From Escherichia coli (GTDB taxonomy: Bacteria > Pseudomonadota > Gammaproteobacteria > Enterobacterales > Enterobacteriaceae), in the NCBI RefSeq assembly GCF_003790525.1, contig NZ_CP033635.1: 64,000 nt of DNA; one strand, 5' to 3'. Each line of letters begins with the position of its first letter. Within the stretch, counting starts at the first letter, position 1. The position numbers were made by a program, and so were the translations under genes. The notes below the pieces were generated by a model, which worked only from the letters and a program-made list of their open reading frames with translations, did no database searches and was not told the DNA's origin. Below, one piece after another: positions 241-59,865 of this stretch.

Positions 241-316
241 TGGTGGCCCCTGTTGGGTTTGAACCAACGACCAAGCGATTATGAGTCGCCTGCTCTAACC
301 ACTGAGCTAAGGGGCC
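241..316 (-). tRNA. ileX: tRNA-Ile2 (anticodon CAU, lysidine-type)
   Basis: Minus-strand sequence ggccccttagctcagtggttagagcaggcgactCATaatcgc...ggggccacca: 76 nt, cloverleaf-compatible, anticodon loop cuCAUaa, encoded 3' CCA. Position next to mug/rpoD matches ileX. Confidence 0.85.
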
Positions 317-16751: not shown

Positions 16752-16773
16752 TCAGGCAAGGATAAAATCGCTT

Positions 16774-19614: not shown

Positions 19615-19661
19615 AGTATGGTATTATCGCGCGCAAATTTTGAATCTCTCAGGAGACAGGA

Positions 19662-28961: not shown

Positions 28962-29630
28962 TTATTTGCTTGCTAACTCACGGATAAGGTCTGCCATCGC
29001 GTCGATGGATTTGATGCTCTTGGTGTAGATCAAGTACTTACCATTAACGACATAGGCTGGAACCCCCTGGATTTTGGCGACATCATAAGAGGCTTTCCAT
29101 TTTTCCAGTGTTTCTTGAACCGCTGGTTCTTTCAGTGCCGCTTCAAAATCCGCCTGACTCATACCTGCGGCATCCAGACCGGTTTTGATAAAAGCAGCCG
29201 GATCTTTACCGTCAGACCAGCGTTCTTTTTTGTCGTGATAAGCCACGTAGTAGGCAAACTTGGCTTTCTTAAACTGAGAGTTAGCATCAAATAAGGAAAT
29301 GCCTGCTGCTTTATCTTTATTGATCAAGACCGCAAAGACTTCGCTTGCTTGTTTGCCGTATTCACCTTTGGTTTCCAGATGGAACGGCGTGAAAGCAACG
29401 ATATCTTTCACTTTTTCCGATACCGGACCGGTAACCGCTTTGTCGTACTTGTAACAGAACGGGCAGGCGTAGCTGAATACCTTAATCAGCGTTTTGTCTG
29501 CATTCGGAATAGGTTTTTCCAGAACCATGTAATCCGTGCCTTCGGTAAATGCAGAAGCGGTAAATGAAACAGCCAAAGCTGCGGTAAGCAGTATGCTTTT
29601 AAATAGTGATGAGATCCCTAATTTCGACAT
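28962..29630 (-). CDS. dsbL: DsbA-like periplasmic thiol:disulfide oxidoreductase
   Basis: 222-aa ORF with a signal peptide and CPFC active site ([10 protein letters not shown]). Confidence 0.85.
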
Positions 29631-29647
29631 TTTTATTCCCTTCTTAA

Positions 29648-31444
29648 TTATTTGAACATCTGTTGTGGACGGACTAACAATGCACGATAGTGAGTCTGAT
29701 TGGGTTTATCTGACAGCACGTCGATTTCCACTTTCACTTCTTTGGTTTTGTAATCGATTTCGTTCAACTTACCGACGGTTGGCTGCCCGACATCGAACAA
29801 ATGAATAGAACCACCGAAGCCAAACATGGTGTTACGGTCGGCTTGATATTCAATGATGGAGGTGATTGGGCTATAGAAATCGTAGCCACGTTCTTTACCG
29901 TATTCCCACACTTGCTGAACGGTGCCTTTCTTCTCATCAATCTTATATTCCACAAAGCGGGAATATTTCATGGTTGGTAAGGCAGGTTGTTCCAGATGAC
30001 GACCATCGCCATTATCAAAAATGGTGAGCGTTCCTTTGCTGGAAATCCAGGCGGTATGCTGGGTGTAGGTAAAGTCGAAGTCTGAGTTTTCGCACAGGCC
30101 ATTTTCGTTACAGGTAATTGGCTTACCGTTAGCATCAACCGGTTTCAGCAGCTTGCTGGCCAGCGGTTTTTCCCAACCTTTAGAGGGTGCAAGGATCCAT
30201 TTCACTTGCTTATCACGACCAATCTTCACAACACCCTGGTGACGAGAAGAGAGAATAATTGAGTCATCTTTTGCGTCATAAGCGATGGAATTAACGTGCG
30301 CCCAGTTACGGCCTGGCCCTACACCCAGAGCGTCGCCGAACGGTGTATCTGGTTCCAGTTTTGCCTGTTGTCCTGCATGGGCAAGGTCAACGTTAACGCA
30401 AACTGCACCTGCATCCAGCGCGCCGAGCAGTGCATCGCGTTTCGGATCGAGGATCTTCGTCAGATCCCATACATCTACAACGCGACCAGATTTATCGACT
30501 TCGAGGATATGGTCACGAATGGTGGTGACGTGTACGCCGTCATCGCGACGATAGTTACTCTTACCTACGCGCAACAGTACCGTGCCATTTGGCGTCTCAA
30601 TGGATTCATGAGTAGCGTCAGCAAATCCGCGCGGTAGTTTGTGATCTTCGAGCACCTGCCCCATCATGTCGAACTCGTACCAGTGCTGACCTTGTACAGC
30701 GGTAAAGGTGCCGCGTGGCGTTTCGCGGATACCCATCAGATAACCACGTTTGTTAATGTTGCGGTCACGACCATCGTAGAAGGTGTTTTGATCCAACCAC
30801 CAGCGGTATTCGCCTTCCGTATCGACGATAAAGGTGAATGGCGCGATATCAAAAGGGAGTGCGCCAGTTGCCGGACCCGCATCAAGGATACCGGCATTTT
30901 TATCTTTCTCACCATGCCAGTGGAGATCGGAACCTTGGGCGGTAAAGGTGTGGGTATTAACCAGATAGAGGCGATCTTCAAAACCCGGTGCGACTTTAAT
31001 AACTTTGGTCTGTTGTAAATCGGAGATAGAGCGGTTATCCATGTAATTATTGACGATGGCCGAAGTGTGCACCACATAATCATCTTTCATGACCTTGCCG
31101 TTTTCTTTCCACTCAACGGTCACTTTGTTAGCAAATTTCTGATAAAGACCAAAAATCGGTACACCATCGTAAGTTTTTAGTGATTCCTGACCCACGGGAT
31201 AGCTGATTTCTACGCCTTTTTCGCCCTTCCCATGGACGGTAACTCTGACGTCAGAAATAACATGGCTATCTAAGTCAACCAAAGCGGTCAGTGGTGCATT
31301 GCCGTAGGGATCGACAATGACCGCACCCAGTTGCCCGGCAGGCGGCGCTGGTTTAAAACCCGCAGCCATCACCCCCGATGCTGACAAACCCAGGGTTATC
31401 GCCACAGTTCCGGCTACGAGTGTTTTTCTATATTTATCAAACAT
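29648..31444 (-). CDS. assT: Periplasmic arylsulfate sulfotransferase
   Basis: 598-aa ORF with a signal peptide; recognised as AssT by family resemblance and by the dsbL-dsbI partners. Confidence 0.88.
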   Translation of the reverse strand: MFDKYRKTLVAGTVAITLGLSASGVMAAGFKPAPPAGQLGAVIVDPYGNAPLTALVDLDSHVISDVRVTVHGKGEKGVEISYPVGQESLKTYDGVPIFGLYQKFANKVTVEWKENGKVMKDDYVVHTSAIVNNYMDNRSISDLQQTKVIKVAPGFEDRLYLVNTHTFTAQGSDLHWHGEKDKNAGILDAGPATGALPFDIAPFTFIVDTEGEYRWWLDQNTFYDGRDRNINKRGYLMGIRETPRGTFTAVQGQHWYEFDMMGQVLEDHKLPRGFADATHESIETPNGTVLLRVGKSNYRRDDGVHVTTIRDHILEVDKSGRVVDVWDLTKILDPKRDALLGALDAGAVCVNVDLAHAGQQAKLEPDTPFGDALGVGPGRNWAHVNSIAYDAKDDSIILSSRHQGVVKIGRDKQVKWILAPSKGWEKPLASKLLKPVDANGKPITCNENGLCENSDFDFTYTQHTAWISSKGTLTIFDNGDGRHLEQPALPTMKYSRFVEYKIDEKKGTVQQVWEYGKERGYDFYSPITSIIEYQADRNTMFGFGGSIHLFDVGQPTVGKLNEIDYKTKEVKVEIDVLSDKPNQTHYRALLVRPQQMFK

Positions 31445-31894
31445 GGATATATCTCCTTATATAACGCAAATATATAATAATGATGAATATCGACTGTTGA
31501 GAGGGTGCTAATAAATTCGTTACGTGAATATGAATATTAATTCAATAAAGAGTGAGAATGCTTTTGTGTTTCTTTTAAATATGTTGTTATTCGGTGAAAC
31601 AAATATTTATGTTTAATGGATAGTAGGGGGGCAATATATCAATCACAATGTTCAATACTGTGTAGTGTGATCCCTGCAACATTGTTTTTTAATTATTAAA
31701 TTTAAATCTGGTGAGATAAAAGTAAAGTATTTAAATAATATCAAATAGTTATGTTGTGATGTATTCACTTACTTTAATTACAATATCGCTTGCATATGAC
31801 GATTTAACATTAAATTGAGTATTAATGTTAAATAAAGGTTGGATATGTATGTGTTTATATATTGATGGGAATTATGAATGGTGGATTATAAGAG
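31445..31894 (-). promoter_or_regulatory. AT-rich upstream/promoter region of the assT operon
   Basis: About 450 bp of strongly AT-rich non-coding DNA with no ORF of 60 codons or more; typical of a horizontally acquired, nucleoid-protein-silenced promoter. Confidence 0.4.
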
Positions 31895-31917
31895 ATTGCC
31901 CCGCTTATCGGGGCAAT
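31895..31917 (-). terminator. Hairpin downstream of ygiC (possible terminator, weak U tract)
   Basis: attgccccg-cttat-cggggcaat perfect stem. Confidence 0.4.
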
Positions 31918-31928
31918 ATTAAGCTGTA

Positions 31929-33089
31929 TTACTCAACAAAAATATGCGGATAAAACCGAGACATATCCTGGGTGATCAATGCACGGTCTTCACGAATGCC
32001 AATTCCGGCAGGTTGATCGTTCACCAGCCAGCTACCAATCAGCATATAGCTGTCGCCGAATTTCGGTAACGGGTGGAATTGCTGAACAATCATCCCTTCT
32101 TCGCCATACGGACCTTCCGCTGCTTCAATGGTTTTGCCGTTCTCAATGATCGACACGTTTGCGCCTTCACGGGAGAAGATCGGTTTAACCACATATTTTT
32201 CCATTTGCGGATGATCATCTTCCGCAAAATAAGCGGGCAGCAGGTTCGGGTGATTCGGGAACATCTCCCACAGTAGCGGTAGAAGCGCTTTGTTGGAGAT
32301 AATGCTCTTCCACGCCGGTTCCAGCCAGCGTACGCCTGCATCCTCCAGCTTGGTGGAGAACATCTCACGCAACATAAATTCCCACGGATACAGCTTGAAC
32401 AGGTTGGAAATCACCTGATCCTGTAAATCCGTGAACTGACCTTTTTCACCTAACCCGATATCGTCGATGTAGAGGAACTCGGTAGCGATTTCAGCTTCCG
32501 TCGCGCAGTCCTGCAAATACTGAATGGTTCCGCGATCTTCCACCGTGTCGCGACAGCAGGTGAGATGCAGCAACTGGAAGCCATACTGTTCACGCAGCTC
32601 AACGAAGCGATCGATCAGCTTTTCTTGCAAACTGTTAAACTGGTCGCTGCCCTCCGGCAAGTTACCGGCGTTAAGCTGATCTTCCAGCCAGATCCACTGA
32701 AAGAACGCCGCCTCGTATAGTGACGTTGGCGTATCGGCGTTATTTTCCAGAAGCTTAGGTTCGCCAGTGCCATCCCACGCCAGATCAAGACGCGAATAAA
32801 GCGATGGCTGGTGCGTCAGCCATGACTGGCGCACAAAACTCCAGGTGTGTTTTGGTATGCGGAATTTGGTCATCAGCTCATCGCTGGCGATCACTTTTTC
32901 CACCACTTTCAGGCACATCTGGTGCAGTTCGGCGGTGACTTCTTCCAGCTTTTCAACCTGAGCGAGGGTCAACTTGTAGTAAGCATCTTCACACCAGTAC
33001 GGCTCGCCGTACATGGTGTGAAAATTGAAACCGTATTCGTGGGCTTTTTCGCGCCAGTCCGGGCGCTCGGTAATACTGACTCTTTCCAT
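31929..33089 (-). CDS. ygiC: Glutathionylspermidine-synthase-like ATP-grasp protein
   Basis: 386-aa [35 protein letters not shown]... Confidence 0.9.
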
Positions 33090-38110: not shown

Positions 38111-40006
<1,896 letters not shown>

Positions 40007-40069: not shown

Positions 40070-42211
40070 TCAAAATTCCATTTTCACCGTGAATTGCACT
40101 TCACGAGGATCGCCAATCTGGTTGCCCAGATTATTTGTGGCGATGGAAGAGGTGTAATACGTTTTATCAAACAGGTTTTTGACGTTTAATTGCAGTGTGA
40201 CCGGATACTGCAATTTCATTTTGTATGCGGCGAAGGCATCGGCAACGAAATAGCCTGGCAGATAATAGTCAGCCCCATTGGTTGCCGAACGACGGCTTAC
40301 GCCATGTCCACCACCGCCAAACGTCAGTGTGTTATTGCCAGGCATGTTATGAATGTCATAAGTCAGGAATAGCGAACCGGTATGACGAGGAACATTCGGC
40401 AATGGTTTCCCTGCATAATCAGGATCCTCCAGAACCTTAGCATCGGTATAGCCGTAGCTGGCAATGATATTAATGTTTTCAGTTAATGCTCCCGCAAGGT
40501 CGACTTCTACCCCTCTTGAACGAACACGGCCTGCCGTTTTGGCAATGGTTTCATCACCAACACTTTCGGTATACAACACATTACGTTTATGGATATCAAA
40601 CAGCGCAATATCTGCGGTGATACCATCGAATAGCTCGAATTTTGCCCCGACTTCGTAAGCATTAGATGATTCCGGTGGAAGATCGCCAATGTAGCTGGCA
40701 ATTGACGACTGCGGCATAAATGTTTGCGAATAATTGGCAAATAAGGATACCGATGGCGTCAGTTTGTAGACTAACCCCAGTTTGGGAGTCCATTGTTCAT
40801 CGCGGCTGTCAGTATTGACATTAAAAGGACGGCCTTTACCCGCATACTGCGTGTAATACTGATAGCGGATCCCGGCGACGGCAATCCAGTTATCGGTCAG
40901 ATAGAGTGCGTCCTGTGCATACGCTGAGTAGCTCTCCTGTTTGATCGTCTGATCACTGTCCGACGCCGAAACCGTTGTACATTTGCTGGTATTACCATAA
41001 ACAGGGTTGTAGATATTGAAATCTTTAGCTTTTTTACAGCGAATCATATCTGTACGCAGAAGATCATAATATTCATATGACACCCCACCCAGAATCTCAT
41101 TATAGAATCCGGCAATATCAACATTCCCTTGCAGATCCGCACGAGTAGCATGCATACGCTGGGTAGATCCCTGAGTTGCATCAACACGCCGTGTCAGTGT
41201 TCCTGTCGTTGCATCATACGCGGTAACACGCGCCTGATTATCGCTGTATTTATCCTGGCTGTAGCTGTAATCAAAGCGCGCTGTCCACTGGCTATTGAGA
41301 TGATATTCTGCGTTGAGTTGCGCCAGATCGGACTTTCCATCTGTAATATTAAACGGTTCGTCAAAACGTATTTTTCGATCAACGTTTACGGGCTGTTTCG
41401 TCGTAAGGTCGAAAATCGTTCCACGATCGAACGGAGTTTTATAGTCCCGATGGGAATAGAGCATAGTTACTGTTGCATTATCACCAAACCAGGTGAGTGA
41501 CGGGGCAATAAATGTACTGCGCTCTTTACCGAAGTTTCGCCAGTAATCTTCATCCTGCACTTCCCCGGTAAGGCGATACGCCAGCTGAGTGCCTTCAATG
41601 GGACCTGTGATATCAAGTTGCCCAGTGCCGCCACCAAAACTGGAGGAGGTGGCTGAAACCGAACCATGGAATGTTTTTTCCGGGCGCTTGGTCACGACGT
41701 TAATCAGTCCACCAGGATCGAGAATGCCATACAGCGTGGAGGCCGGACCTTTTAGCACTTCCACACGTTCTGTGGCGGCGTTGAAACTGCGAGGAAGTAC
41801 AGTTCGCAGGCCGTTGGTCATGATGGAGCCATCCCGGTTAGCACCAAACCCACGACGTACAAAGGCGTCCTGAGTTCCGCCTAATGTATTGGTCTGTACC
41901 ACGTTACTGACGTTATAAAGCGCTTCATCCAGCGTCGTCGCATTCTGATTTTCCAGAACCTGATCGCTAACAGTATTGACCACCTGCGGGATATCCAGCA
42001 TCGGCATATCGGTTAATGTCGCCGTGGAAGTGCTCAGAGGTTGATAACCATCGGTTGCCTCAGTTGCGGTATTTGCATCTGCTGTAACAGTGATTGTTTC
42101 GCCATCTTTGGTCGTTACAGAGTCTGTTGCATGAATCATCGGTGCCGCAAAAAGCAGTGAAAAGAGCGCCCGACCTTTGAGTCCTGAGAATGAAGGTGTG
42201 AACATAGCCAT
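40070..42211 (-). CDS. TonB-dependent outer-membrane siderophore receptor (accessory)
   Basis: 713-aa ORF with a signal peptide, TonB box ETITVTA, plug and beta-barrel, and a C-terminal aromatic residue (MEF). Confidence 0.85.
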   Translation of the reverse strand: MAMFTPSFSGLKGRALFSLLFAAPMIHATDSVTTKDGETITVTADANTATEATDGYQPLSTSTATLTDMPMLDIPQVVNTVSDQVLENQNATTLDEALYNVSNVVQTNTLGGTQDAFVRRGFGANRDGSIMTNGLRTVLPRSFNAATERVEVLKGPASTLYGILDPGGLINVVTKRPEKTFHGSVSATSSSFGGGTGQLDITGPIEGTQLAYRLTGEVQDEDYWRNFGKERSTFIAPSLTWFGDNATVTMLYSHRDYKTPFDRGTIFDLTTKQPVNVDRKIRFDEPFNITDGKSDLAQLNAEYHLNSQWTARFDYSYSQDKYSDNQARVTAYDATTGTLTRRVDATQGSTQRMHATRADLQGNVDIAGFYNEILGGVSYEYYDLLRTDMIRCKKAKDFNIYNPVYGNTSKCTTVSASDSDQTIKQESYSAYAQDALYLTDNWIAVAGIRYQYYTQYAGKGRPFNVNTDSRDEQWTPKLGLVYKLTPSVSLFANYSQTFMPQSSIASYIGDLPPESSNAYEVGAKFELFDGITADIALFDIHKRNVLYTESVGDETIAKTAGRVRSRGVEVDLAGALTENINIIASYGYTDAKVLEDPDYAGKPLPNVPRHTGSLFLTYDIHNMPGNNTLTFGGGGHGVSRRSATNGADYYLPGYFVADAFAAYKMKLQYPVTLQLNVKNLFDKTYYTSSIATNNLGNQIGDPREVQFTVKMEF

Positions 42212-42311
42212 TTAGTCTGTTATCCCAAAAACTCGCGGATTGTCGCGAGTGAAAATTGTTTCTTATTGCTCACTAAGCACTATCCGTTTGTTATTTCGCC
42301 ATCGGATATGT

Positions 42312-42330
42312 AATTGAGAATCATTCAATC
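42312..42330. promoter_or_regulatory. Candidate Fur box in the divergent receptor/ABC promoter region
   Basis: aattGAGAATCATTCaatc partially matches the GATAATGATAATCATTATC consensus (about 12 of 19). Confidence 0.25.
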
Positions 42331-42584
42331 ACGCAGTAATGTAGTAGTAAATGAGAAATAACAAAAAATTGCTACATGTGTTTTTATGAAAAGTTTATAC
42401 AATTTGATTGCTTTTAATTTATTGATATTTAATGGTTTTGTTTTTATGTGCAAAAATATTTTACCTGTTATTTACCTTGTTTTTGTGTGGCTTTTAACTG
42501 CTTGACTACTACATTTTGTGGCGTCAAACTCTCAAAGGAGAATGAGTTTTATTTTTGTTTGTCTTTGATTAAGTTGGCGTACAC

Positions 42585-43394
42585 GTGGCACATAACGCAA
42601 AAGGGCAGGGGCTGATCCTCGACAATGTTTCTGCCGGGTATCACAAGAAAATCATTGTTGATGGTGTTTCTTTCTCCGTTCCCACAGAAAAAATGACCGT
42701 TCTGGTTGGGGCAAACGGCTGTGGAAAGTCGACGCTGCTCAGCACCATTGCTCGTATCTTGCAACCCATGGGCGGTTCGATATTGCTGGATGGTAAAGCG
42801 ATTCACGAGCAACCAACGAAAGCGTTATCCCGTAGACTTGGGATCTTGCCGCAGTCGCCATTATTGCCGGAGGGCTTAACCGTTTATGAACTGGTGTCGC
42901 GTGGGCGTTTTCCCTGGCAGAATTTCATTCGTCAATGGAGCGACGCCGATGAGCTGGCGGTAGAAGAGGCCCTGAAATTAACGGGTACGCAGGAGTTTGC
43001 ACATTTACCTGTTGAAAAACTCTCTGGTGGGCAGCGCCAGCGTTGCTGGATTGCGATGGTGTTGGCGCAAAAGACGCCTTATATCCTGCTGGATGAACCC
43101 ACAACCTGGCTTGATTTACGTTATCAGGTTGAAATTCTTGAGTTATTACATGATTTAACGCGTCATCACGGGCGTACAGTCGTCGTGGTGTTGCATGATC
43201 TGAATTTTGCCGTCAATTATGGCGATACGTTGATATTTTTACGCCAGGGGAAAGTGGTGCGTGTGTTGAATGAGGGGGAGCATTGCACGCCTGAGCTGGT
43301 AAAAGCGGTCTTTGACGTTGATGTTCACGCATCAATAAATCCTCTGACGGGAAAGCCGTTCTTCATGCCGTTTCGTGGTGTAGAAAAAGTATGA
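42585..43394 (+). CDS. ABC transporter ATP-binding protein (FecE/FepC-like)
   Basis: Walker A GANGCGKST, signature LSGGQRQR, Walker B ILLDEP; GTG start with a weak SD. Confidence 0.85.
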   Translation: MAHNAKGQGLILDNVSAGYHKKIIVDGVSFSVPTEKMTVLVGANGCGKSTLLSTIARILQPMGGSILLDGKAIHEQPTKALSRRLGILPQSPLLPEGLTVYELVSRGRFPWQNFIRQWSDADELAVEEALKLTGTQEFAHLPVEKLSGGQRQRCWIAMVLAQKTPYILLDEPTTWLDLRYQVEILELLHDLTRHHGRTVVVVLHDLNFAVNYGDTLIFLRQGKVVRVLNEGEHCTPELVKAVFDVDVHASINPLTGKPFFMPFRGVEKV

Positions 43395-44374
43395 TGCGCA
43401 CAGGGCTGGTTACTGTAATTTTCCTCGCCTTACTGCTGGTGGGATGCGTGGTATATCCAGGGATTGGTGCCCGATTTATTGCACCACAAACGGTGTTGCA
43501 GGCATTTCTTCATTTTGATCCGCAAAACTTCGATCACAACGTAATTGTAAGACTCCGTTTGCCGCGTTTAGCGGCAGCATTGCTTACCGGTGCTTCTCTT
43601 GGAGTTGCTGGTGCTTTGTTGCAGGCTGTCATTCGTAACCCATTGGGGGAGCCACATATTTTAGGCTTAAATGCCGGAGCCGCTCTTGCTGTCGTTGCTG
43701 CCAGTGCGCTTGGGCTGGCCTTTCCGGTTGGACGCCCACTGCTGGCATCTACGGGCGGCGCGTTATTGTTCCTGTTGATATTGCTGCTTTCCTCCGCAGG
43801 GCGTTCAGGGTTAACGCCAATGAAAGTTACTTTATGCGGCGTGGCGCTATCGGCGTTCGTGTCCTCAATAACGGCTGCAATCCTGATTCTTGACGAACAA
43901 ACACTGCTGGCGATGCGGACATGGCTAGCAGGTGATTTAGCGGGGCAGGATTGGGCGACGCTGGGTACGTCCGCCTGGTTTTCTCTGGGGGGATTTGTGT
44001 TAGCCCTTTACCTTGCACCCTCCCTTAACATGTTGGCACTGGGCGATCGCATGGCGCAGGGGCTGGGCGTCTCTGTATTCCGCACGCGAACATTCACCCT
44101 GCTTGCGATCGCGTTGCTCTGTGGCGCAGCCGTATCGATTGCTGGCCCCATTGGTTTTGTCGGCCTGCTAGTACCGCAGATTGTCCGGCGTCTGGTATCA
44201 GCGGATCTGCGCGTTCTGCTCCCTCTTTCAGCTTGTGTCGGCGCACTTTTGTTATTACTGGCAGATATTATTGCCCGTACGCTTTTCACACCCCATGAGT
44301 TAGCGACCGGTGTCATGACGGCGTTAGTTGGTGCGCCTGTTTTTGTCATTATGGCGACGAGGATGTTCAAATGA
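43391..44374 (+). CDS. ABC transporter permease, FecCD family
   Basis: 327-aa polytopic ORF; start overlaps the ATPase stop. Confidence 0.85.
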   Translation: MMRTGLVTVIFLALLLVGCVVYPGIGARFIAPQTVLQAFLHFDPQNFDHNVIVRLRLPRLAAALLTGASLGVAGALLQAVIRNPLGEPHILGLNAGAALAVVAASALGLAFPVGRPLLASTGGALLFLLILLLSSAGRSGLTPMKVTLCGVALSAFVSSITAAILILDEQTLLAMRTWLAGDLAGQDWATLGTSAWFSLGGFVLALYLAPSLNMLALGDRMAQGLGVSVFRTRTFTLLAIALLCGAAVSIAGPIGFVGLLVPQIVRRLVSADLRVLLPLSACVGALLLLLADIIARTLFTPHELATGVMTALVGAPVFVIMATRMFK

Positions 44375-45420
44375 GTCGGATAATGAACGTCGGGCTACGC
44401 CCACTACGTGTTGGTAAGTTTTCGACACTGGTACGCCCTAAAAATCTGCTGTTGCTTGGTGGGCTGTTCCTGCTTGCGGTTGGAATACTGATATTCGGTC
44501 TGATGCAGGGTTCTTTCTCTGTTCCGGCATCGGAAGTAGGACGAGCGTTGTTTGCTCCAGAAAACGTAAGCACAGACGCACGTTATATTGTGCAGGATAT
44601 TCGCTTGCCGAGAGTCATCATGGCATTGCTATGCGGGGCCATGTTAGGTATGGCAGGGGCCGCAATGCAATCCATTGCACGTAACGGCCTTGCCGATCCT
44701 GGTTTAATCGGCGTCAAAGAAGGATGTAGCGTGGCTGTGCTGTGGCTGATTTTCCAGTTTCCAATGCTGGGAATGTTCTGGCGTCCAGTGGCTGGTCTTG
44801 CTGGTGGCCTGTTGGTGGCTTTAATCGTGATTTTTTGTGCGCGCGATATTTCCCGCCCGCGATTTGTTCTGATTGGTATTGGTGTTTCCTGGTTTTTCGC
44901 CGCCGGTATCGGTGTATTTATGACCACTGCAGATGTTCGAGATGTACAAACTGCATTGATGTGGTTATCGGGAAGCCTGCATGCAGCTAACTGGATGTTA
45001 GTCGCTATTTCAGCCTGTTGGATGTTGCCAGCCGCTCTTTTATTGCTGTTCACCGCCAGGACGGCGGATATCGCTCTGCTTGGTCATCAGGTTGCAACCG
45101 GGTTAGGGGTGAATAGTTCTCGTCTGGCGTTGTTACGTGTCGCTGCACCCATAATCCTGACAGCCGTCTGCGTTTCGTGTGTTGGTAACATCGGTTTTGT
45201 CGGATTGATAGCACCCCATATATCACGTTTTATTCTACGTGGCGGGCAGACGACATTACTGCTGGGGAGCGCGGTATCGGGGGCGTTGTTAGTTATTCTG
45301 GCGGATAGCATTGGTCGTTTGGCTTTTTTGCCTTTGCAACTGCCTGCCGGAATCATTATCTCACTGATTGGTGGACCATTTTTTTTGCTACTGCTCTGGC
45401 AGCGCAGGAACAGTTTTTAA
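44371..45420 (+). CDS. ABC transporter permease, FecCD family
   Basis: 349-aa polytopic ORF; overlaps the upstream permease by 4 nt. Confidence 0.85.
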   Translation: MSRIMNVGLRPLRVGKFSTLVRPKNLLLLGGLFLLAVGILIFGLMQGSFSVPASEVGRALFAPENVSTDARYIVQDIRLPRVIMALLCGAMLGMAGAAMQSIARNGLADPGLIGVKEGCSVAVLWLIFQFPMLGMFWRPVAGLAGGLLVALIVIFCARDISRPRFVLIGIGVSWFFAAGIGVFMTTADVRDVQTALMWLSGSLHAANWMLVAISACWMLPAALLLLFTARTADIALLGHQVATGLGVNSSRLALLRVAAPIILTAVCVSCVGNIGFVGLIAPHISRFILRGGQTTLLLGSAVSGALLVILADSIGRLAFLPLQLPAGIIISLIGGPFFLLLLWQRRNSF

Positions 45421-45430
45421 CGGGAGTTAT

Positions 45431-46378
45431 ATGCGTTTATTTTTTTCTCTGCTGATACTGTTGTCATTTTTTTCCCGTGCAACAGAACCTGTTCAGGTAT
45501 TTACTGATGATTTAGGGCGCAAAGTCACTGTTCCTGCTCATCCAAAGAGAATTGTCTCTTTACACGATCTTGATATCACTATTCCTCTGATTGAGCTCGG
45601 TGTACCTCCTGTCGCCAGCCACGGGCGAACTCGGCCTGACGGTAGCCATTTCATTCGATCTGGCGCGTTATTGACAGGTGTCGACTTTGATAATTCATCG
45701 ATCGCCTTTATTGGTACCGCTGATATTGATATTGAAGCGATTGTGGCGGCAAAGCCTGACCTGATCATCACAGAACCGACCCGTAATACGCCCATTGAAC
45801 AACTTGAAAAAATTGCGCCCACGGTGAGCATTGATCATCTCAAAGGGGGCGCGCCAGAAATCTATCGCAAGCTGGCAGAACTTACAGGAACGCAGTCGCA
45901 GCTGGCGATACTTGAACGCCGCTATCAGGCACAAATCAATGCGCTGAAGGCGACGCTGGACAGCCAAAAAATAACGGTATCGGTGATTCAGGCAAACCAG
46001 GGAAAAATTAATGTGATGCATAGCTATCATTCGCTGGGGCGGGTATTACGCGATGCTGGTTTTCGTTTTCCGCCGCTGATTGAGAGCATTCCTGAAGGTG
46101 GGCGAATGGATGTGAGCGCGGAGCGTTTACCTGAACTGGATGCCGATTTTGTTTTTGCAACCTGGCGCGGTGACACCGGTGGTAAACCTCAGGATGAGCT
46201 GGCAGCAATGGAAAAAGTCATGCCGGGATGGTGTCAGTTTCTGACTGCCTGTCGTTCCGGGCGTTATGTGCTGATTTCTCGTGAAGAGGCGATTTCTAAC
46301 TCCTTTGCATCTCTGGGGCTGATGGCTGCGCAGATACAATCACAAATTGCAGGGCGACCTCTACCGGAGGATAAATGA
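45431..46378 (+). CDS. Periplasmic substrate-binding protein (FecB/FepB-like, cluster A)
   Basis: Product starting MRLFFSLLILLSFFSRA (signal peptide) at the ATG at 45431, with a GGGAG SD. Confidence 0.8.
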   Translation: MRLFFSLLILLSFFSRATEPVQVFTDDLGRKVTVPAHPKRIVSLHDLDITIPLIELGVPPVASHGRTRPDGSHFIRSGALLTGVDFDNSSIAFIGTADIDIEAIVAAKPDLIITEPTRNTPIEQLEKIAPTVSIDHLKGGAPEIYRKLAELTGTQSQLAILERRYQAQINALKATLDSQKITVSVIQANQGKINVMHSYHSLGRVLRDAGFRFPPLIESIPEGGRMDVSAERLPELDADFVFATWRGDTGGKPQDELAAMEKVMPGWCQFLTACRSGRYVLISREEAISNSFASLGLMAAQIQSQIAGRPLPEDK

Positions 46379-47262
46379 TCCAGAAAGATAAAGCGCGGGT
46401 TGATATTTTTGGTGAGCGTTTTCGCACTCGCGCGAGTCAGTTAACGCCTGGGTTAAGAGTTGTCGCCAGCTACATTAATGAGCATCGTGAAGTGGTACTC
46501 GAGCAAACGGCGATGGAAATTGCGGCCACGTTGAACACTTCCGATGCCACAGTTATCAGGGCTATACAGGCCCTGGGGTTTGCCGGGCTGCGTGATCTGA
46601 AACGCACTCTGGAACAGTGGCTTGGTCCAGCCCTTAGTTCCAGCGAAAAGATGTCTACGACGGTGAGTAACTTGACGAGCGATGTTAACACCGCAATCGA
46701 CTTTGTTCTTGAAGGGCATTTGTATACCTGTAATGTCCTGTCAGAGCCTGAAAACCGCCACGCGCTTGCGCAAGCTGTAGCGTTGTTGGTGCAGGCACGG
46801 CAAGTCGCTATTTTTGGCATTGGCGCTTCGGGTATCCTGGCGGACTATACCGCACGACTATTCAACCGCATAGGTTTGCCTGCCACGGCACTAAACCGTA
46901 CGGGTATTGGCCTTGCCGAGCAACTGATCGCGCTTCAACGTGGCGATGTTCTGATCATGATGGCGCAAAAATCTGCGCACCGGGAAGGGCTGACAACGCT
47001 TCGTGAGGCGAGGCGGCTGGGGATCCCTGTTATTTTGCTGACAAACGCGCTGGATTCACGTTTTAGCAAAGACGCCAGTATCGTGATTCATGTTCCGCGC
47101 GGGGATGAAAAAGGGAAAACGCCGCTACATGGTACGGTATTGTTGTGTCTGGAAATGATTGTCTGGTCGGTAGCTTCCGCAGTGCCGCAGCGTGCGGTTA
47201 AAACCATTAAGCGAATTAACGATTTCCATCGAGGACTGAAAACGGGAAGAAAGAATGGCTAA
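46375..47262 (+). CDS. RpiR/MurR-family transcriptional regulator (HTH plus SIS domain)
   Basis: 295-aa ORF with an N-terminal HTH (TAMEIAATLNTSDATVIRAIQALGFAGLRDLK) and a SIS phosphosugar-binding fold (IFGIGASGILA); overlaps the binding-protein stop. Confidence 0.8.
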   Translation: MIQKDKARVDIFGERFRTRASQLTPGLRVVASYINEHREVVLEQTAMEIAATLNTSDATVIRAIQALGFAGLRDLKRTLEQWLGPALSSSEKMSTTVSNLTSDVNTAIDFVLEGHLYTCNVLSEPENRHALAQAVALLVQARQVAIFGIGASGILADYTARLFNRIGLPATALNRTGIGLAEQLIALQRGDVLIMMAQKSAHREGLTTLREARRLGIPVILLTNALDSRFSKDASIVIHVPRGDEKGKTPLHGTVLLCLEMIVWSVASAVPQRAVKTIKRINDFHRGLKTGRKNG

Positions 47263-47651: not shown

Positions 47652-48233
47652 TTAACCAAAAATTTCCACAAGATGCTTGCGATATTCTTCAGTATAGCGG
47701 GGAACATCAGGCATTTTTATCACGTCATTAGCGATAAATGTCGGCAGCGGTTCCATGCCAAGGAATTGGTTTGCTTTATGAAACGGCAGGTACACACCGT
47801 CAACACCAACGCCGTGGAAGAACTGATCTTTTTCGGTGAAGGCTTCCATTGGTGCGTTCCAGGTCAGAGAAAGCATATATTTTTTGCCCTGTACCAGGCC
47901 GCCGGAGCCGTATTTTTTCGACGGATCTTTGCGGGTACGACCATCGCTGGCATACAGCGTCCCGTGACCTTCGGTGAATACATCATCAATGTATTTTTTC
48001 ACTGTCCACGGCGCGCCCATCCACCAGCCTGGCATCTGCCAGATCACCACATCAGCCCAGAGAAAGTTTTGTACTTCCGCTTTGACATCGTAGTCGCTGT
48101 CGGCGCGAACGATGCGGACATCATGCCCGAGGTCGCGCAGTGTGCCATCCGCGACTTCGGTCAGGGTGTCGTTCAGTTGACCATTGGAGTGGGCGAATTT
48201 TTTCGCGCCGTTGATAATCAGGATGTTGCTCAT
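47652..48233 (-). CDS. mdaB: NADPH:quinone oxidoreductase
   Basis: 193-aa ORF MSNILIINGAKKFAHSNGQLNDTL... Confidence 0.9.
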   Translation of the reverse strand: MSNILIINGAKKFAHSNGQLNDTLTEVADGTLRDLGHDVRIVRADSDYDVKAEVQNFLWADVVIWQMPGWWMGAPWTVKKYIDDVFTEGHGTLYASDGRTRKDPSKKYGSGGLVQGKKYMLSLTWNAPMEAFTEKDQFFHGVGVDGVYLPFHKANQFLGMEPLPTFIANDVIKMPDVPRYTEEYRKHLVEIFG

Positions 48234-48342
48234 TTTTTAACCTTAAGGTGAGACGTTTGCCGACTATAGTACGTCACAGAGCGGTACGGTGAAATTAGCA
48301 AAATGTGCAAAGTCTTTTGCGAATTTAGCAAAAGTCTTACCC

Positions 48343-49692
48343 TTACCAGCTTACTTTCGCCTCAAATCCACCTTGTTCCGCATTCCCAAACTCAACATTC
48401 ATGTCATGCAGCTTGGCGATTCGCTGGACAATTGAAAGCCCAAGTCCACTGCCGGTAGCGGTTTGTCCGGGTGGGCGATAGAAGCGTTCGCCAATTCTCG
48501 CCAGTGCCTCTGGCGTCACACCGGGGCCGTTATCCTTCACGATGAAATTATCGGCATTCAGCGTGACGTCCACCACGCAGCCCTGTGGACTGTAGCGCAC
48601 GGCGTTATCCAGAAGGTTTCGTACCAACAAACTTAGCAACAGCGGTTGTCCGGTGCGTTTGATGCCGTGGGCATTGAGTGTCAGTCGCACGTCAATTTTC
48701 GCCTGCTGCGCCGTGTGGTAAATATCCATCACCGACGATTGCAGGAGATCTTCAAGCGGGATCTCCGCGACGTCCTGAAGGTTATCCAGTGAGTCCAGCC
48801 GCGATAGCGTGAGCAGTTGATCAACCAGACGAGTAGCGCGATCGATCCCGGAATGTAATTGGAGCAGCGCTTTTTTCCGCGCCTGCGGATCATCGTCAGA
48901 GAGCTGAGCAACTTCGGTTTGCACTTTCAGCGCCGTTAACGGGCTACGAAGTTCGTGAGCTGCGTCGGAGGTAAAGCGTCGTTCACGAACCATCATCGCA
49001 TGTGTGCGGGCGAACAGTTGATTCAACGACTCAACCAGTGGGCGCACTTCGCTGGGTACGCCCGTCGCGTTTAGTGGTTTTTCCGAGTCTGGGTCACGCA
49101 TACGTAGTGCCAGCGCCAGTTTGTTCAGCGGCGCGAGTTCACGACCCAGTAGTACCATCATGATGATTAACATAATCGGCAGTGCGACCAGCCACGGGAT
49201 CAATTGTCCGGCAACAATCGCCAGCGCCATGTCTTCACGGTATTCCCATTCCTGACCAACAACAATGCGATATTTGCCATCAGGTGAGGTCATCCAGACA
49301 AAACGCCATTGATCTTTATCGCCCACCAGTTGCCCGTCAGCAAAACCTTCTCGTTGATAGCTATAAGGAATATCTTCTCCATTATCGCCATCGTTAAGGA
49401 CCATTCTGCCGTCGTGGGTAAAGATGGCAAAGGTCAGCGCATCGTCATCAACATGACCGTGTTTTAATTTATTTGGCGTCTGTGCCATGCGATCCGCCGC
49501 GTTGATTTCGTTGAGATCGAGCGTACTTAACCGTTTGGCAAACAGCATCAGTTGGGTGTCGAACAACTCATCGACGTTATCCGTTGTTTGTTTCCAGGCG
49601 ACAAAGCTGGAAAGCAGCCAGGTCACCGAGGCCAGAATTAAAAAGATTAGCGTTAGCCTGACTCGCAGACTAAGACGTTGGGTAAATTTCAT
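48343..49692 (-). CDS. qseC: Sensor histidine kinase QseC
   Basis: 449-aa ORF with two TM helices, an H-box ([12 protein letters not shown]) and an ATPase domain. Confidence 0.9.
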
Positions 49693-50944: not shown

Positions 50945-51427
50945 ATGACAAACCTGACACTGGATGTAAATATTATCGATTTCCCATCAATCCCTGTGGC
51001 GATGTTGCCGCACCGCTGTAGCCCTGAGTTGCTCAACTACAGTGTGGCGAAATTTATCATGTGGCGTAAAGAGACGGGGCTTTCTCCTGTTAACCAAAGC
51101 CAGACTTTTGGCGTCGCCTGGGACGACCCTGCCACCACCGCACCAGAAGCGTTTCGCTTTGATATCTGCGGCAGCGTTAGCGAACCGATCCCCGATAATC
51201 GTTATGGCGTAAGTAATGGTGAACTTACCGGTGGACGTTATGCTGTGGCCCGCCATGTTGGCGAGCTGGACGATATTTCACACACGATATGGGGCATCAT
51301 TCGCCACTGGCTTCCGGCAAGCGGCGAAAAAATGCGCAAGGCCCCGATCCTGTTTCACTACACCAATCTTGCCGAAGGGATGACAGAGCAGCGACTGGAA
51401 ACAGATGTTTATGTGCCGTTGGCGTGA
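50945..51427 (+). CDS. ygiV: GyrI-like domain protein
   Basis: 160-aa ORF MTNLTLDVNIIDFPSIPVAML... Confidence 0.8.
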   Translation: MTNLTLDVNIIDFPSIPVAMLPHRCSPELLNYSVAKFIMWRKETGLSPVNQSQTFGVAWDDPATTAPEAFRFDICGSVSEPIPDNRYGVSNGELTGGRYAVARHVGELDDISHTIWGIIRHWLPASGEKMRKAPILFHYTNLAEGMTEQRLETDVYVPLA

Positions 51428-51535
51428 TGAAGAATCTTTACCGGAGTGTGAGCCAAATCACTCGCGATAAGTTTGAGCGAACAATGCCACAGGCGTATTG
51501 TTGTTGGGCTTATAATTTCTCCGGTAAGGAATACC

Positions 51536-53143
51536 ATGTATACGCGAAATTTATTATGGCTGGTCAGCCTGGTAAGTGCGGCTCCTCTCTACGCTGCTGA
51601 CGTTCCCGCCAACACACCGCTCGCCCCGCAACAAGTCTTTCGTTACAACAATCATAGCGACCCAGGCACGCTCGACCCGCAAAAGGTGGAGGAGAATACT
51701 GCCGCGCAGATTGTGCTGGATCTGTTTGAAGGTCTGGTATGGATGGACGGTGAAGGCCAGGTGCAGCCCGCTCAGGCTGAACGCTGGGAGATACTGGACG
51801 GCGGCAAGCGCTATATTTTCCATCTGCGTAGCGGTTTGCAGTGGTCAGACGGTCAGCCTCTGACGGCAGAGGATTTTGTCCTCGGCTGGCAGCGCGCGGT
51901 TGACCCGAAAACGGCAAGCCCTTTTGCTGGCTATCTGGCACAGGCGCACATTAACAATGCCGCGGCTATTGTTGCGGGTAAAGCAGATGTTACATCGCTG
52001 GGTGTCAAAGCGACGGATGATCGTACTCTTGAAGTTACGCTTGAGCAGCCAGTTCCTTGGTTCACGACGATGCTCGCCTGGCCGACGCTGTTCCCGGTTC
52101 CTCATCATGTCATCGCTAAACATGGCGATAGCTGGAGTAAGCCAGAGAACATGGTTTACAACGGTGCCTTTGTGCTTGATCAGTGGGTAGTTAACGAAAA
52201 GATTACTGCACGCAAAAATCCAAAGTACCGCGATGCGCAACATACAGTATTGCAACAGGTTGAGTATCTGGCGCTGGATAATTCGGTCACCGGCTATAAC
52301 CGCTATCGCGCGGGAGAGGTCGATCTCACCTGGGTTCCGGCGCAGCAAATTCCCGCCATTGAAAAATCACTGCCTGGCGAGCTACGAATTATTCCGCGTC
52401 TGAACAGCGAATATTACAACTTCAACCTTGAGAAACCGCCATTTAACGATGTGCGGGTGCGTCGGGCGCTATATCTTACGGTTGATCGACAGCTTATTGC
52501 GCAAAAGGTACTGGGGTTGAGAACGCCCGCAACTACGCTGACGCCGCCAGAGGTAAAAGGCTTTAGCGCGACGACGTTCGATGAACTGCAAAAGCCGCTG
52601 AGTGAGCGCGTCGCGATGGCAAAAGCCTTGTTGAAACAGGCGGGATACGACGCCTCTCATCCGCTTCGCTTTGAGCTGTTCTACAACAAGTACGATCTGC
52701 ATGAAAAGACCGCGATAGCGTTGTCTTCCGAATGGAAAAAATGGCTGGGTGCACAGGTGACGCTGCGCACAATGGAGTGGAAAACTTATCTTGATGCCCG
52801 ACGAGCCGGTGATTTCATGTTGTCTCGGCAGTCGTGGGATGCGACGTACAATGATGCCTCCACCTTTCTGAACACGCTTAAGAGCGATAGCGAGGAAAAT
52901 GTCGGCCACTGGAAAAACGCGCAGTATGACGCCTTACTAAACCAGGCGGCACAAACGGCTGATGCAACAAAGCGTAATGCGTTGTATCAGCAGGCAGAAG
53001 TGATCATCAACCAGCAGGCACCGCTCATTCCTGTCTATTATCAGCCGTTAATCAAACTGCTTAAACCCTACGTTGGCGGTTTTCCGCTGCATAATCCCCA
53101 GGATTATGTCTACAGCAAAGAGTTGTATATCAAGGCACATTGA
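51536..53143 (+). CDS. ygiS: Periplasmic solute-binding protein, family 5 (OppA-like)
   Basis: Product starting MYTRNLLWLVSLVSAAPLYA at the ATG at 51536, with a TAAGGA SD. Confidence 0.85.
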   Translation: MYTRNLLWLVSLVSAAPLYAADVPANTPLAPQQVFRYNNHSDPGTLDPQKVEENTAAQIVLDLFEGLVWMDGEGQVQPAQAERWEILDGGKRYIFHLRSGLQWSDGQPLTAEDFVLGWQRAVDPKTASPFAGYLAQAHINNAAAIVAGKADVTSLGVKATDDRTLEVTLEQPVPWFTTMLAWPTLFPVPHHVIAKHGDSWSKPENMVYNGAFVLDQWVVNEKITARKNPKYRDAQHTVLQQVEYLALDNSVTGYNRYRAGEVDLTWVPAQQIPAIEKSLPGELRIIPRLNSEYYNFNLEKPPFNDVRVRRALYLTVDRQLIAQKVLGLRTPATTLTPPEVKGFSATTFDELQKPLSERVAMAKALLKQAGYDASHPLRFELFYNKYDLHEKTAIALSSEWKKWLGAQVTLRTMEWKTYLDARRAGDFMLSRQSWDATYNDASTFLNTLKSDSEENVGHWKNAQYDALLNQAAQTADATKRNALYQQAEVIINQQAPLIPVYYQPLIKLLKPYVGGFPLHNPQDYVYSKELYIKAH

Positions 53144-53280: not shown

Positions 53281-55539
53281 ATGAGCGATATGGCAGAGCG
53301 CCTTGCGCTACATGAATTTACGGAAAACGCCTACTTAAACTACTCCATGTACGTGATCATGGACCGTGCGTTGCCGTTTATTGGTGATGGTCTGAAACCC
53401 GTTCAGCGGCGCATTGTGTATGCGATGTCTGAACTGGGTCTGAATGCCAGTGCCAAATTTAAAAAATCGGCCCGTACCGTCGGTGACGTACTGGGTAAAT
53501 ACCATCCGCACGGCGATATTGCCTGTTATGGAGCGATGGTCCTGATGGCGCAGCCGTTCTCTTACCGTTATCCGCTGGTTGATGGTCAGGGGAACTGGGG
53601 CGCGCCGGACGATCCGAAATCGTTCGCGGCAATGCGTTACACCGAATCCCGGTTATCGAAATATTCTGAGTTGCTATTAAGCGAGCTTGGACAGGGGACG
53701 GCTGACTGGGTGCCAAACTTCGACGGCACCTTACAGGAGCCGAAAATGCTGCCAGCCCGCCTGCCGAACATTTTGCTTAACGGCACCACCGGTATTGCCG
53801 TCGGCATGGCGACCGATATTCCACCGCATAACCTGCGTGAAGTGGCTCAGGCGGCAATCGCATTAATCGACCAGCCGAAAACCACGCTCGATCAGCTGCT
53901 GGATATCGTGCAGGGGCCGGATTATCCGACTGAAGCGGAAATTATCACTTCGCGCGCCGAGATTCGTAAAATCTACGAGAACGGACGTGGTTCAGTGCGT
54001 ATGCGCGCGGTTTGGAAGAAAGAAGATGGCGCGGTGGTTATTAGCGCATTGCCGCATCAGGTTTCAGGTGCGCGCGTACTGGAGCAAATTGCTGCGCAAA
54101 TGCGCAACAAAAAGCTGCCGATGGTTGACGATCTGCGCGATGAATCTGACCACGAGAACCCGACCCGTCTGGTGATTGTGCCGCGTTCCAACCGCGTGGA
54201 TATGGATCAGGTGATGAACCACCTCTTCGCTACCACCGATCTGGAAAAGAGCTATCGCATTAACCTCAATATGATCGGTCTGGATGGTCGTCCGGCGGTG
54301 AAAAACCTGCTGGAAATCCTCTCCGAATGGCTGGTGTTCCGCCGCGATACCGTGCGCCGCCGACTGAACTATCGTCTGGAGAAAGTCCTCAAGCGCCTGC
54401 ATATCCTCGAAGGTTTGCTGGTGGCGTTTCTCAATATCGACGAAGTGATTGAGATCATTCGTAATGAAGATGAACCGAAACCGGCGCTGATGTCGCGGTT
54501 TGGCCTTACGGAAACCCAGGCGGAAGCGATCCTCGAACTGAAACTGCGTCATCTTGCCAAACTGGAAGAGATGAAGATTCGCGGTGAGCAGAGTGAGCTG
54601 GAAAAAGAGCGCGACCAGTTGCAGGGCATTTTGGCTTCCGAGCGTAAAATGAATAACCTGCTGAAGAAAGAACTGCAGGCAGACGCGCAAGCCTACGGTG
54701 ACGAACGTCGTTCGCCGTTGCAGGAACGCGAAGAAGCGAAAGCGATGAGCGAGCACGACATGCTGCCGTCTGAACCTGTCACCATTGTGCTGTCGCAGAT
54801 GGGCTGGGTACGCAGCGCTAAAGGCCATGATATCGACGCGCCGGGCCTGAATTATAAAGCGGGCGATAGCTTCAAAGCGGCGGTGAAAGGTAAGAGCAAC
54901 CAACCGGTAGTGTTTGTTGATTCCACCGGTCGTAGCTATGCCATCGACCCGATTACGCTGCCGTCGGCGCGTGGTCAGGGCGAACCGCTCACCGGCAAAT
55001 TAACGTTGCCGCCTGGAGCGACCGTTGACCATATGCTGATGGAAAGCGACGATCAGAAACTGCTGATGGCTTCCGATGCGGGTTACGGTTTCGTCTGCAC
55101 CTTTAACGATCTGGTGGCGCGTAACCGTGCAGGTAAGGCTTTGATCACCTTACCGGAAAATGCCCATGTTATGCCGCCGGTGGTGATTGAGGATGCTTCC
55201 GATATGCTGCTGGCAATCACTCAGGCAGGCCGTATGTTGATGTTCCCGGTAAGCGATCTGCCGCAGTTGTCGAAGGGCAAAGGCAATAAGATTATCAACA
55301 TTCCGTCGGCAGAAGCCGCGCGTGGCGAGGATGGTCTGGCGCAACTGTACGTTCTACCACCGCAAAGCACGCTGACCATTCATGTTGGGAAACGCAAAAT
55401 TAAACTGCGTCCGGAAGAGCTACAGAAAGTCACTGGCGAACGTGGACGCCGCGGTACGTTGATGCGCGGTTTGCAGCGTATCGATCGTGTTGAGATCGAC
55501 TCTCCTCGCCGTGCCAGCAGCGGTGATAGCGAAGAGTAA
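53281..55539 (+). CDS. parC: DNA topoisomerase IV subunit A, carrying S80I and E84G in the QRDR
   Basis: 752-aa ORF; codon 80 is ATT (53518-53520) and codon 84 is GGA (53530-53532), giving [13 protein letters not shown]. Confidence 0.97.
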
Positions 55540-58067: not shown

Positions 58068-59414
58068 TCAGGTCGAAAATAATCCTGGCAGCATCAGACT
58101 AAGCTGCGGGAAATAACAAATAATTGCCATTACTACAAACAATGCCAGAAACATCGGCAGTAATGGTTTTATTGCCCTGTCGATACTGACCTTACCAATG
58201 CTGCAACCAACAAACAGAATGGTGCCAACGGGTGGTGTACAAAGGCCAATGGTCAAGTTGAACACCATAATAATACCGAAGTGGATGGGATCTATTCCCA
58301 GATGCTGAGCGATCGGCAGGAAAATAGGCGTAAATATCAGGATCGCCGGTGTGATATCCATAAAGGTACCGACGATCAACAGAATGATATTGATGATAAA
58401 CAGAATAACCCATTTGTTATCCGAAACACTGGTAATCAGTTCGTTGATCAACTCAGGAACATCAGCATTCGTCATGGCCCATGACATCCCCATCGAGCAG
58501 CCTACCAGTAACAGAACAATTGAACTGGTTACTACCGAATCTAACAGAATATCATTGAGCTTCTTAAAAGTGATTTCCCGGTAAATCATCGCCAGGGCTA
58601 AACTATAAATTACCGCAATTGCCGATGCTTCCGTGGGCGTGAATACCCCTGCGATAATACCGCCAATAATGATAAAAATAAGCATCAGGCTGGGAATTGA
58701 TTCGCGGAATACCTGCAAAAATTGATGAAAATTGATACGTTCGGCCACCGGATAATGGTTACGTCGCGCATAAAGTGCCGCCACAAACATTAAAGCAGCA
58801 GCGGTGAGAATGCCTGGCAAGTATCCGGCTAAGAACAACGCAGCAACAGAAGTCCCGCCACTGGCGAGGGAATAAACAATCAACACATTGCTCGGTGGGA
58901 TCATCAGGCCAATGGGGGCAGAGGCAATATTAACCGCTGCTGAAAACGCCGGATCATAGCCCTCTTTTTCTTGCAGTGGTGACATAATTCCACCTACCGC
59001 GGCGGCTGACGCAACGGCTGAACCTGAAATCGCACCAAACAGCGTATTCGCGAGGATATTACAATGAGCCAGTGAGCCAGGAAGACGCCCAACTAATGCT
59101 TGCGCTAGGTTAACCAGTCGTCTGGCTATACCACCGGTATTCATAATGTTTCCGGCTAACACGAAGAAGGGAATGGCTAATAGCGTAAAGCCATCCAGCC
59201 CCACAGTCATCTTTTGCGAAATCACAGAAATGGCGGCATCGGGTGGTAAGGCAGTAATAATAGATAACAGCGAAGAAAGACCAATCGCAAAAGTAATTGG
59301 CACACCGATTGCCAGCATGACGGCAAAACTGCCAAATAAAATTAAGACGGGGTAGATATATTCAAAGTCCATATTTCCCTCGTTAATGAAAATTCCGTTT
59401 ACGATAGTTGTCAA
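58068..59414 (-). CDS. TRAP transporter large permease (DctM family)
   Basis: 448-aa polytopic ORF; the true start may be the internal MDFEYIYP. Confidence 0.85.
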   Translation of the reverse strand: MTTIVNGIFINEGNMDFEYIYPVLILFGSFAVMLAIGVPITFAIGLSSLLSIITALPPDAAISVISQKMTVGLDGFTLLAIPFFVLAGNIMNTGGIARRLVNLAQALVGRLPGSLAHCNILANTLFGAISGSAVASAAAVGGIMSPLQEKEGYDPAFSAAVNIASAPIGLMIPPSNVLIVYSLASGGTSVAALFLAGYLPGILTAAALMFVAALYARRNHYPVAERINFHQFLQVFRESIPSLMLIFIIIGGIIAGVFTPTEASAIAVIYSLALAMIYREITFKKLNDILLDSVVTSSIVLLLVGCSMGMSWAMTNADVPELINELITSVSDNKWVILFIINIILLIVGTFMDITPAILIFTPIFLPIAQHLGIDPIHFGIIMVFNLTIGLCTPPVGTILFVGCSIGKVSIDRAIKPLLPMFLALFVVMAIICYFPQLSLMLPGLFST

Positions 59415-59865
59415 TAATATTCATTACTGAATACCAGACCAGAATAAGTCCACTGACAGGCATAACCCAATATACTTTATCCATTGGCCATTTTAATACT
59501 GGAGAGATTTGTCCAACATGTTGTGCTTTTTCAACAACAATATTCCCGCCATAGATCATGAAAATAACCGCAAAGACCGTAATAATAATTTGGATAAAAC
59601 TGTCAAGCGTCAGAACAGATGCAGCCGGAAGTTTTTGAGCCAACAAATCAATGGCCAGATGTTTTTTTAACCCCGCAGTATATACACCGCCAAGTAAAAT
59701 CATCCACATAAATAAAATCTGGGTGAACTCATCAAGCACAGTGCTGGGAGCGTTAAAAATAAAACGTGCAATAACTTGCTAGGTTACGCAGAACACCATA
59801 ATGGCGAGAATAATGCAGCAACATCCGGCAAGGATCTTATTAAGAATATGAGTGAGTGTTCGCAT
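59383..59865 (-). pseudogene. TRAP transporter small permease (DctQ family) interrupted by an in-frame TAG at codon 29
   Basis: ATG at 59865 with a GGAAG SD, giving MRTLTHILNKILAGCCCIILAIMVFCVT, then TAG (59781-59779), then the frame continues QVIARFIFNAPSTVLDEFTQILFMWMILLGG... to 59383. Confidence 0.6.

Follow-up and report, generated by a model that had tools for sequence, protein, structure and literature searches.

The window, a stretch of 64,000 nucleotides of Escherichia coli DNA, carries the genes for both subunits of DNA topoisomerase IV, parE and parC, and both are intact (Table 1). parC is an open reading frame of 752 codons that starts with ATG at 53281-53283. It is flanked by ygiS and plsC in the same order as in K-12 and in SMS-3-5, and all matching RefSeq genomes annotate this gene as parC. 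BLASTP alignment with ParC of K-12 MG1655 (NP_417491, from NC_000913.3) gave 749 identities over 752 residues without gaps. Because the alignment is gap-free, the numbering of ParC residues is exact. The sole differences from K-12 ParC are S80I, E84G and D475E. At the DNA level, parC differs from that of K-12 at 44 nucleotides, which change 43 codons, 40 of them synonymously and 3 non-synonymously. The N-terminal 490 residues of ParC align over their whole length with topoisomerase IV cores of known structure (E = 0 to 1e-215), namely the ParE-ParC fusions 5EIX, 6WAA/7LHZ and 9KGT, E. coli ParC 1ZVU, and 2XKK/2XKJ, so that the fold and the location of residues 80 and 84 are not in doubt. Two of these structures, 5EIX and 2XKK, are presumably quinolone complexes.

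Table 1. Genes, codons and other features of the window (position 1 is its first nucleotide)
Feature	Position	Strand	Remark
tRNA	241-316	-	Met-CAT by ARAGORN; tRNA-Ile in RefSeq
ttdR	10258-11190	+	intact, 310 aa
parE	38114..40006	+	DNA topoisomerase IV subunit B, 630 aa, intact
ParE V136I	38519-38521	+
ParE V153I	38570-38572	+
ParE codon 355, ACC (Thr)	39176..39178	+	I355T (ATC>ACC)
Insert between parE and ygiN	40070-47262		7.2 kb, absent from K-12; RefSeq names of its genes: TonB-dependent siderophore receptor (-), ABC ATPase, two FecCD permeases, periplasmic binding protein, MurR/RpiR regulator
Synonymous SNPs vs SMS-3-5	41972, 47781, 59106		in the genes for a TonB receptor, mdaB and the TRAP large permease, respectively
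Sites of genes missing vs K-12 (mqsR-mqsA, ygiZ)	48233-48343 and 51427-51536
parC	53281..55539	+	DNA topoisomerase IV subunit A, 752 aa, intact; ORF, gap-free K-12 alignment
ParC codon 80, ATT (Ile)	53518..53520	+	S80I; K-12 AGC (Ser)
ParC codon 84, GGA (Gly)	53530..53532	+	E84G; K-12 GAA (Glu)
ParC codon 475, GAA (Glu)	54703..54705	+	D475E; natural polymorphism
TRAP transporter small-permease gene	59383-59865	-	internal stop at codon 29

An earlier note on this DNA had read isoleucine at codon 80 and glycine at codon 84 of ParC. The alignment with K-12 parC bore out both readings; these codons are truly 80 and 84, and the reference encodes Ser and Glu there. The same note had called S80I and E84G established resistance changes of topoisomerase IV, and this agrees with surveys in which they are reported alongside gyrA S83L/D87N in ciprofloxacin-resistant isolates (PMC8117236, PMC11183298, PMC10638923). 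Two of the three amino acid changes among 752 residues are thus the two canonical drug-contact residues. By our own rough estimate, random placement of two changes on these residues has a probability of about 1e-5, and chance placement was therefore dismissed. A sequencing or assembly artefact was considered as the source of S80I and E84G and was ruled out, since the 90-nt parC haplotype of the window is identical in 28 of 5425 complete E. coli genomes and 777 public contigs encode exactly this ParC protein. ParC with E475 and the wild-type residues S80 and E84 was found on at least 1000 contigs; D475E is therefore not tied to the resistance substitutions.

ParE had been described as apparently wild type. 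This held for the residues that had been inspected (L416, D420, I444, L445, S458, E460, I464 and I529), and three differences from K-12, V136I, V153I and I355T, had been overlooked. Several E. coli surveys give I355T among the parE point mutations (PMC11183298, PMC8117236, PMC10638923, PMC8400056), and it belongs to the published ST354 pattern (PMC10638923); one published chicken isolate carried I355T without any gyrA mutation. The local 90-nt parE haplotype around I355T (39132-39221) is matched exactly in only 40 complete genomes, and the identifiable members of these appear to belong to the same group of resistant relatives. A further 74 genomes match this stretch at 95-99% and most at 90-95%, and 690 have no megablast hit, so the stretch is unusually lineage-specific. 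Nucleotide divergence from K-12 is 3.6% for parE and 1.9% for parC. One more distant genome, Ch1, has I355 and wild-type ParC, and the version of the window ParE in which T355 is replaced by I was found on 239 contigs. I355T may thus either contribute to resistance or simply mark the lineage. Separately, we considered a frameshifted parE made up of the reading frames 45368..46378 and 46375..47262, whose products sum to ~630 aa and which lie upstream of ygiN. This candidate was rejected: the two frames encode the siderophore-binding protein and the RpiR regulator of the iron-uptake insert, and the real parE is the intact gene in Table 1.

The window is nearly identical to the corresponding region of E. 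coli SMS-3-5 (NC_010498.1). parC is 100% identical in the two, and over 33000-63999 there are 3 SNPs in 31,000 bp, all synonymous. With a 25-kb query (36000-60999), 3 mismatches were found to each of eight complete genomes, SMS-3-5 among them, and the SNPs are apparently the same three against the seven other best-matching genomes. None of the 5426 complete RefSeq genomes is identical to the window, whose three synonymous SNPs in 36000-60999 are private to it; the source strain is therefore closely related to these genomes but distinct from each of them. At the left side, the best match over 1-25000 has 1 mismatch, and identity to SMS-3-5 is ~100% across 228-25000. SMS-3-5 belongs to ST354 and has been used as the ST354 reference (PMC9174282). 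None of the MLST loci adk, fumC, gyrB, icd, mdh, purA and recA is annotated in the matching regions, which make up all of the window but about 29000-33000. On the basis of this near-identity, the window is assigned to the ST354 (SMS-3-5) lineage of E. coli, phylogroup F.

The ParC and ParE substitutions also fit ST354. It has been reported that ST354/CC354 isolates carry gyrA S83L D87N, parC S80I E84G and parE I355T (PMC8117236, PMC11183298). In Table 3 of another survey, ST354 is listed with GyrA S83L D87N, ParC S80I E84G D475E R236L and ParE V136I V153I I355T (PMC10638923), and the ParC/ParE set of the window equals this pattern minus ParC R236L. The gene order of the window is shared with SMS-3-5, which has the siderophore-uptake insert between parE and ygiN as well; the window is unlike SMS-3-5 in its left end (1-227) and in the three synonymous SNPs. 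ST131-H30 is a comparable case from another lineage. Its ParC is changed at the same residues (S80I + E84V) on a gyrA S83L D87N background, and river isolates with this double mutant showed the same high-level ciprofloxacin resistance (PMC3995870). Residue 84 is however Val in ST131-H30 and Gly in the window, and ST131-H30 has other ParC/ParE lineage polymorphisms, such as ParE I529L (I529 in the window).

Several other observations concern the structure of the window. Its first bases lie in a DUF4942 gene, the last one of a prophage-like island with cbtA/yeeU, and this island adjoins a tRNA gene. Bases 1-227 are fully matched only by CS5L and EC17CM2, both chicken isolates from China; GN03551 and GN03139 match the left end from base 7, and SMS-3-5 and others diverge there. 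In the annotation of CS5L, ttdR is a pseudogene interrupted by a stop codon, while it is intact in the window; this stop may be the single mismatch between the two over 1-25000. The insert between parE and ygiN may be similar to Fit, an iron-uptake system of extraintestinal E. coli. Compared with K-12, the window lacks the toxin-antitoxin pair mqsR-mqsA between ygiV and ygiS, and it lacks ygiZ between qseC and mdaB, where some other strains have hcp, a hypothetical gene and ygiZ. The internal stop of the TRAP small-permease gene is likewise annotated in SMS-3-5 and CREC-544, and this gene is probably a pseudogene throughout the lineage.

gyrA is outside the window, as the earlier note had said; in SMS-3-5 it lies ~966 kb from parC. 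GyrA of SMS-3-5 differs from that of K-12 only by S83L and D87N. SMS-3-5 and 27 other complete genomes share this gyrA allele at 100% identity; among them are CS5L, EC17CM2, GN03551, GN03139 and SC516. Two genomes that share the parC haplotype, CREC-544 and UID2309220003, have a gyrA allele 33-34 nt from that of SMS-3-5, and their GyrA proteins carry S83L + D87Y and S83L + D87N, respectively. gyrA was doubly mutated in every examined carrier of ParC S80I + E84G. From these relatives, the source strain is expected to have gyrA S83L + D87N. The claim that the DNA comes from a quinolone-selected lineage is thereby supported, both by the near-identity to SMS-3-5 and by gyrA S83L + D87N in the closest relatives, which have the same allele. 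The further qualification "probably clinical" proved too narrow. The 28 carriers of the parC haplotype came from humans, chickens, dogs, a cat, a pangolin, and river or surface water; SMS-3-5 itself was described as an environmental isolate, and the best relatives at the variable left end are chicken isolates.

How the two ParC substitutions would act can be proposed from homologous enzymes. Quinolones are held by a water-Mg2+ bridge, which the enzyme anchors through a serine and, four positions after it, an acidic residue. [quoted passage not shown] ParC Ser80 and Glu84 correspond to GyrA Ser83 and Asp87, and they anchor the bridge between the quinolone keto-acid and topoisomerase IV. By homology, S80I + E84G would remove both anchors; the drug would then poorly stabilise topoisomerase IV-DNA cleavage complexes, and the enzyme would remain functional. 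The bridge was partly disrupted by single mutations in topoisomerase IV of Bacillus anthracis, whose homologous serine and glutamate are likewise four residues apart; when both were mutated, the interaction of drug and enzyme was abolished (PMC3632122). That double mutant is however from another species and has other replacement residues than the window, and in E. coli, unlike the B. anthracis case, topoisomerase IV is the secondary target (PMC11015057). As gyrase is the primary target, changes in parC are of benefit only after gyrA has mutated.

Published isolates are consistent with such an effect. For a CC354 isolate of the same genotype, the ciprofloxacin MIC exceeded 2 mg/L (PMC8117236), and ST354 pig isolates were ciprofloxacin-resistant (PMC8400056). 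River isolates with the gyrA double mutation and S80I had ciprofloxacin MICs of 8-24 mg/L, and those with E84V or E84G added to S80I had MICs above 32; the single E84G isolate among them also had a plasmid-borne determinant, which confounds its MIC (PMC3995870). For E84G, the literature that we found consists of correlative isolate tables, with no isogenic MIC data. A rise of the MIC in the source strain and a loss of drug binding are thus predicted by analogy with these isolates and enzymes.

The codons allow the likely history of the allele to be proposed. AGC, codon 80 of K-12, is two nucleotide steps from ATT. We took ten loci that encode ParC with S80, E84 and E475, and 8 of the 10 have AGT at codon 80. 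This suggests that ATT arose by a single G>T change (nt 239) from AGT, the likely ancestral codon, and E84G goes back to one A>G change at nt 251, from GAA. Four neighbours with one mismatch to the parC haplotype were taken, SC516, CFSAN061771, MS8345 and IMT16316, and all have ATT + GAA, that is S80I alone. SC516 shares the gyrA allele of SMS-3-5, and its 25 kb are nearly those of the window, yet it has S80I only. Exact-protein matches on the E475 background gave at least 1000 public contigs for S80I alone, 777 for S80I + E84G and 12 for E84G alone. Because E84G alone is rare and the sibling SC516 has S80I only, the most likely order, as read from the allele counts, is S80I before and E84G last. 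The proposed sequence of steps would be gyrA S83L (plus D87N), then parC S80I (AGT>ATT), then parC E84G (GAA>GGA), each a single nucleotide change selected under quinolone exposure. The pair S80I + E84G is found too with D475, as in K-12, on 590 contigs, a case of convergence. One report lists ST354 pig isolates with "parC E84G" only, without S80I (PMC8400056); S80I may really be absent there, or it may have been missed in calling because AGC and ATT differ at two nucleotides.

Taken together, we consider parC of the window to be a chromosomal QRDR target-site quinolone-resistance allele of the E. coli ST354 (SMS-3-5) lineage, with a probability of about 0.93. Other readings of the two substitutions were weighed against this. 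It is very hard to believe that they are neutral polymorphisms of the lineage, unrelated to quinolone selection or carried along by hitch-hiking. Nearby polymorphisms that do mark the lineage, ParC D475E and ParE V136I and V153I, would fit such a reading, but relatives with wild-type E475 ParC keep S80 and E84, and it would have to place two of only three amino acid changes on the two drug-contact residues. The convergent pair on the D475 background, the doubly mutated gyrA in every examined genome with the pair and the ciprofloxacin resistance of published isolates of this genotype argue against neutrality as well. It is also improbable, to a high degree, that E84G was selected mainly to compensate for the fitness of the S80I + gyrA double-mutant background and not for extra resistance. 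The near absence of E84G alone (12 contigs against 777 with S80I) would look alike if E84G had an epistatic, background-dependent benefit of this kind. Against it, the MIC of river isolates was higher with a second ParC change than with S80I only (PMC3995870), and losing the second bridge anchor directly affects the interaction with the drug biochemically (PMC3632122); we found no fitness data.

A further possibility concerns only where the allele came from. Homologous recombination may have brought in the parC allele, perhaps together with parE I355T, as a chromosomal block from another resistant E. coli, which we regard as unlikely. CREC-544 and UID2309220003 share the parC haplotype, and CREC-544 also the 25 kb, on different gyrA alleles. 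Furthermore, CREC-544 differs from the window at 5 positions over 20000-64000 and at about 45 in 16000-20000 (ygiF/glnE), which marks a mosaic boundary, and the ParC with S80I only (WP_022646133.1) is common to genomes of differing flanking identity. However, CREC-544 may itself be the recipient in any such transfer. SC516, the S80I-only sibling described above, speaks against import, as does the fact that ATT is one step from AGT, a common wild-type codon 80. Because S80I-only siblings exist on the same background, an A>G change in place is the simplest origin of E84G, simpler than import. Import would alter only the origin of the parC allele and not its mechanism, so the reading as a target-site resistance allele would stand.

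Recombination nevertheless deserves mention for other carriers of the allele. In CREC-544 the same 44 kb is almost unchanged, yet its gyrA is another allele and its divergence from the window changes sharply near position 20000, which suggests recombination mosaicism around parE-parC in some carriers. A broader idea is that a parE(I355T)-parC(S80I,E84G) block of tens of kb travels between E. coli lineages through homologous recombination and that ParE I355T is co-adapted to the doubly mutated ParC; this is speculative and in our judgement rather doubtful. Recombinational spread of QRDR alleles has already been described for other E. coli clones. A travelling parE-parC block, if true, would be only a new instance of this known process.

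S80I + E84G in ParC, the genotype, the mechanism and the lineage have all been published before, and there is no new biology in them. The value of the parC finding is practical and not conceptual, the exact protein being on hundreds of public contigs. It flags the source as a fluoroquinolone-selected ST354 E. coli, a lineage that is found in poultry, companion animals, people and water. If gyrA S83L/D87N is confirmed in the same genome, point-mutation screening would predict high-level ciprofloxacin resistance.
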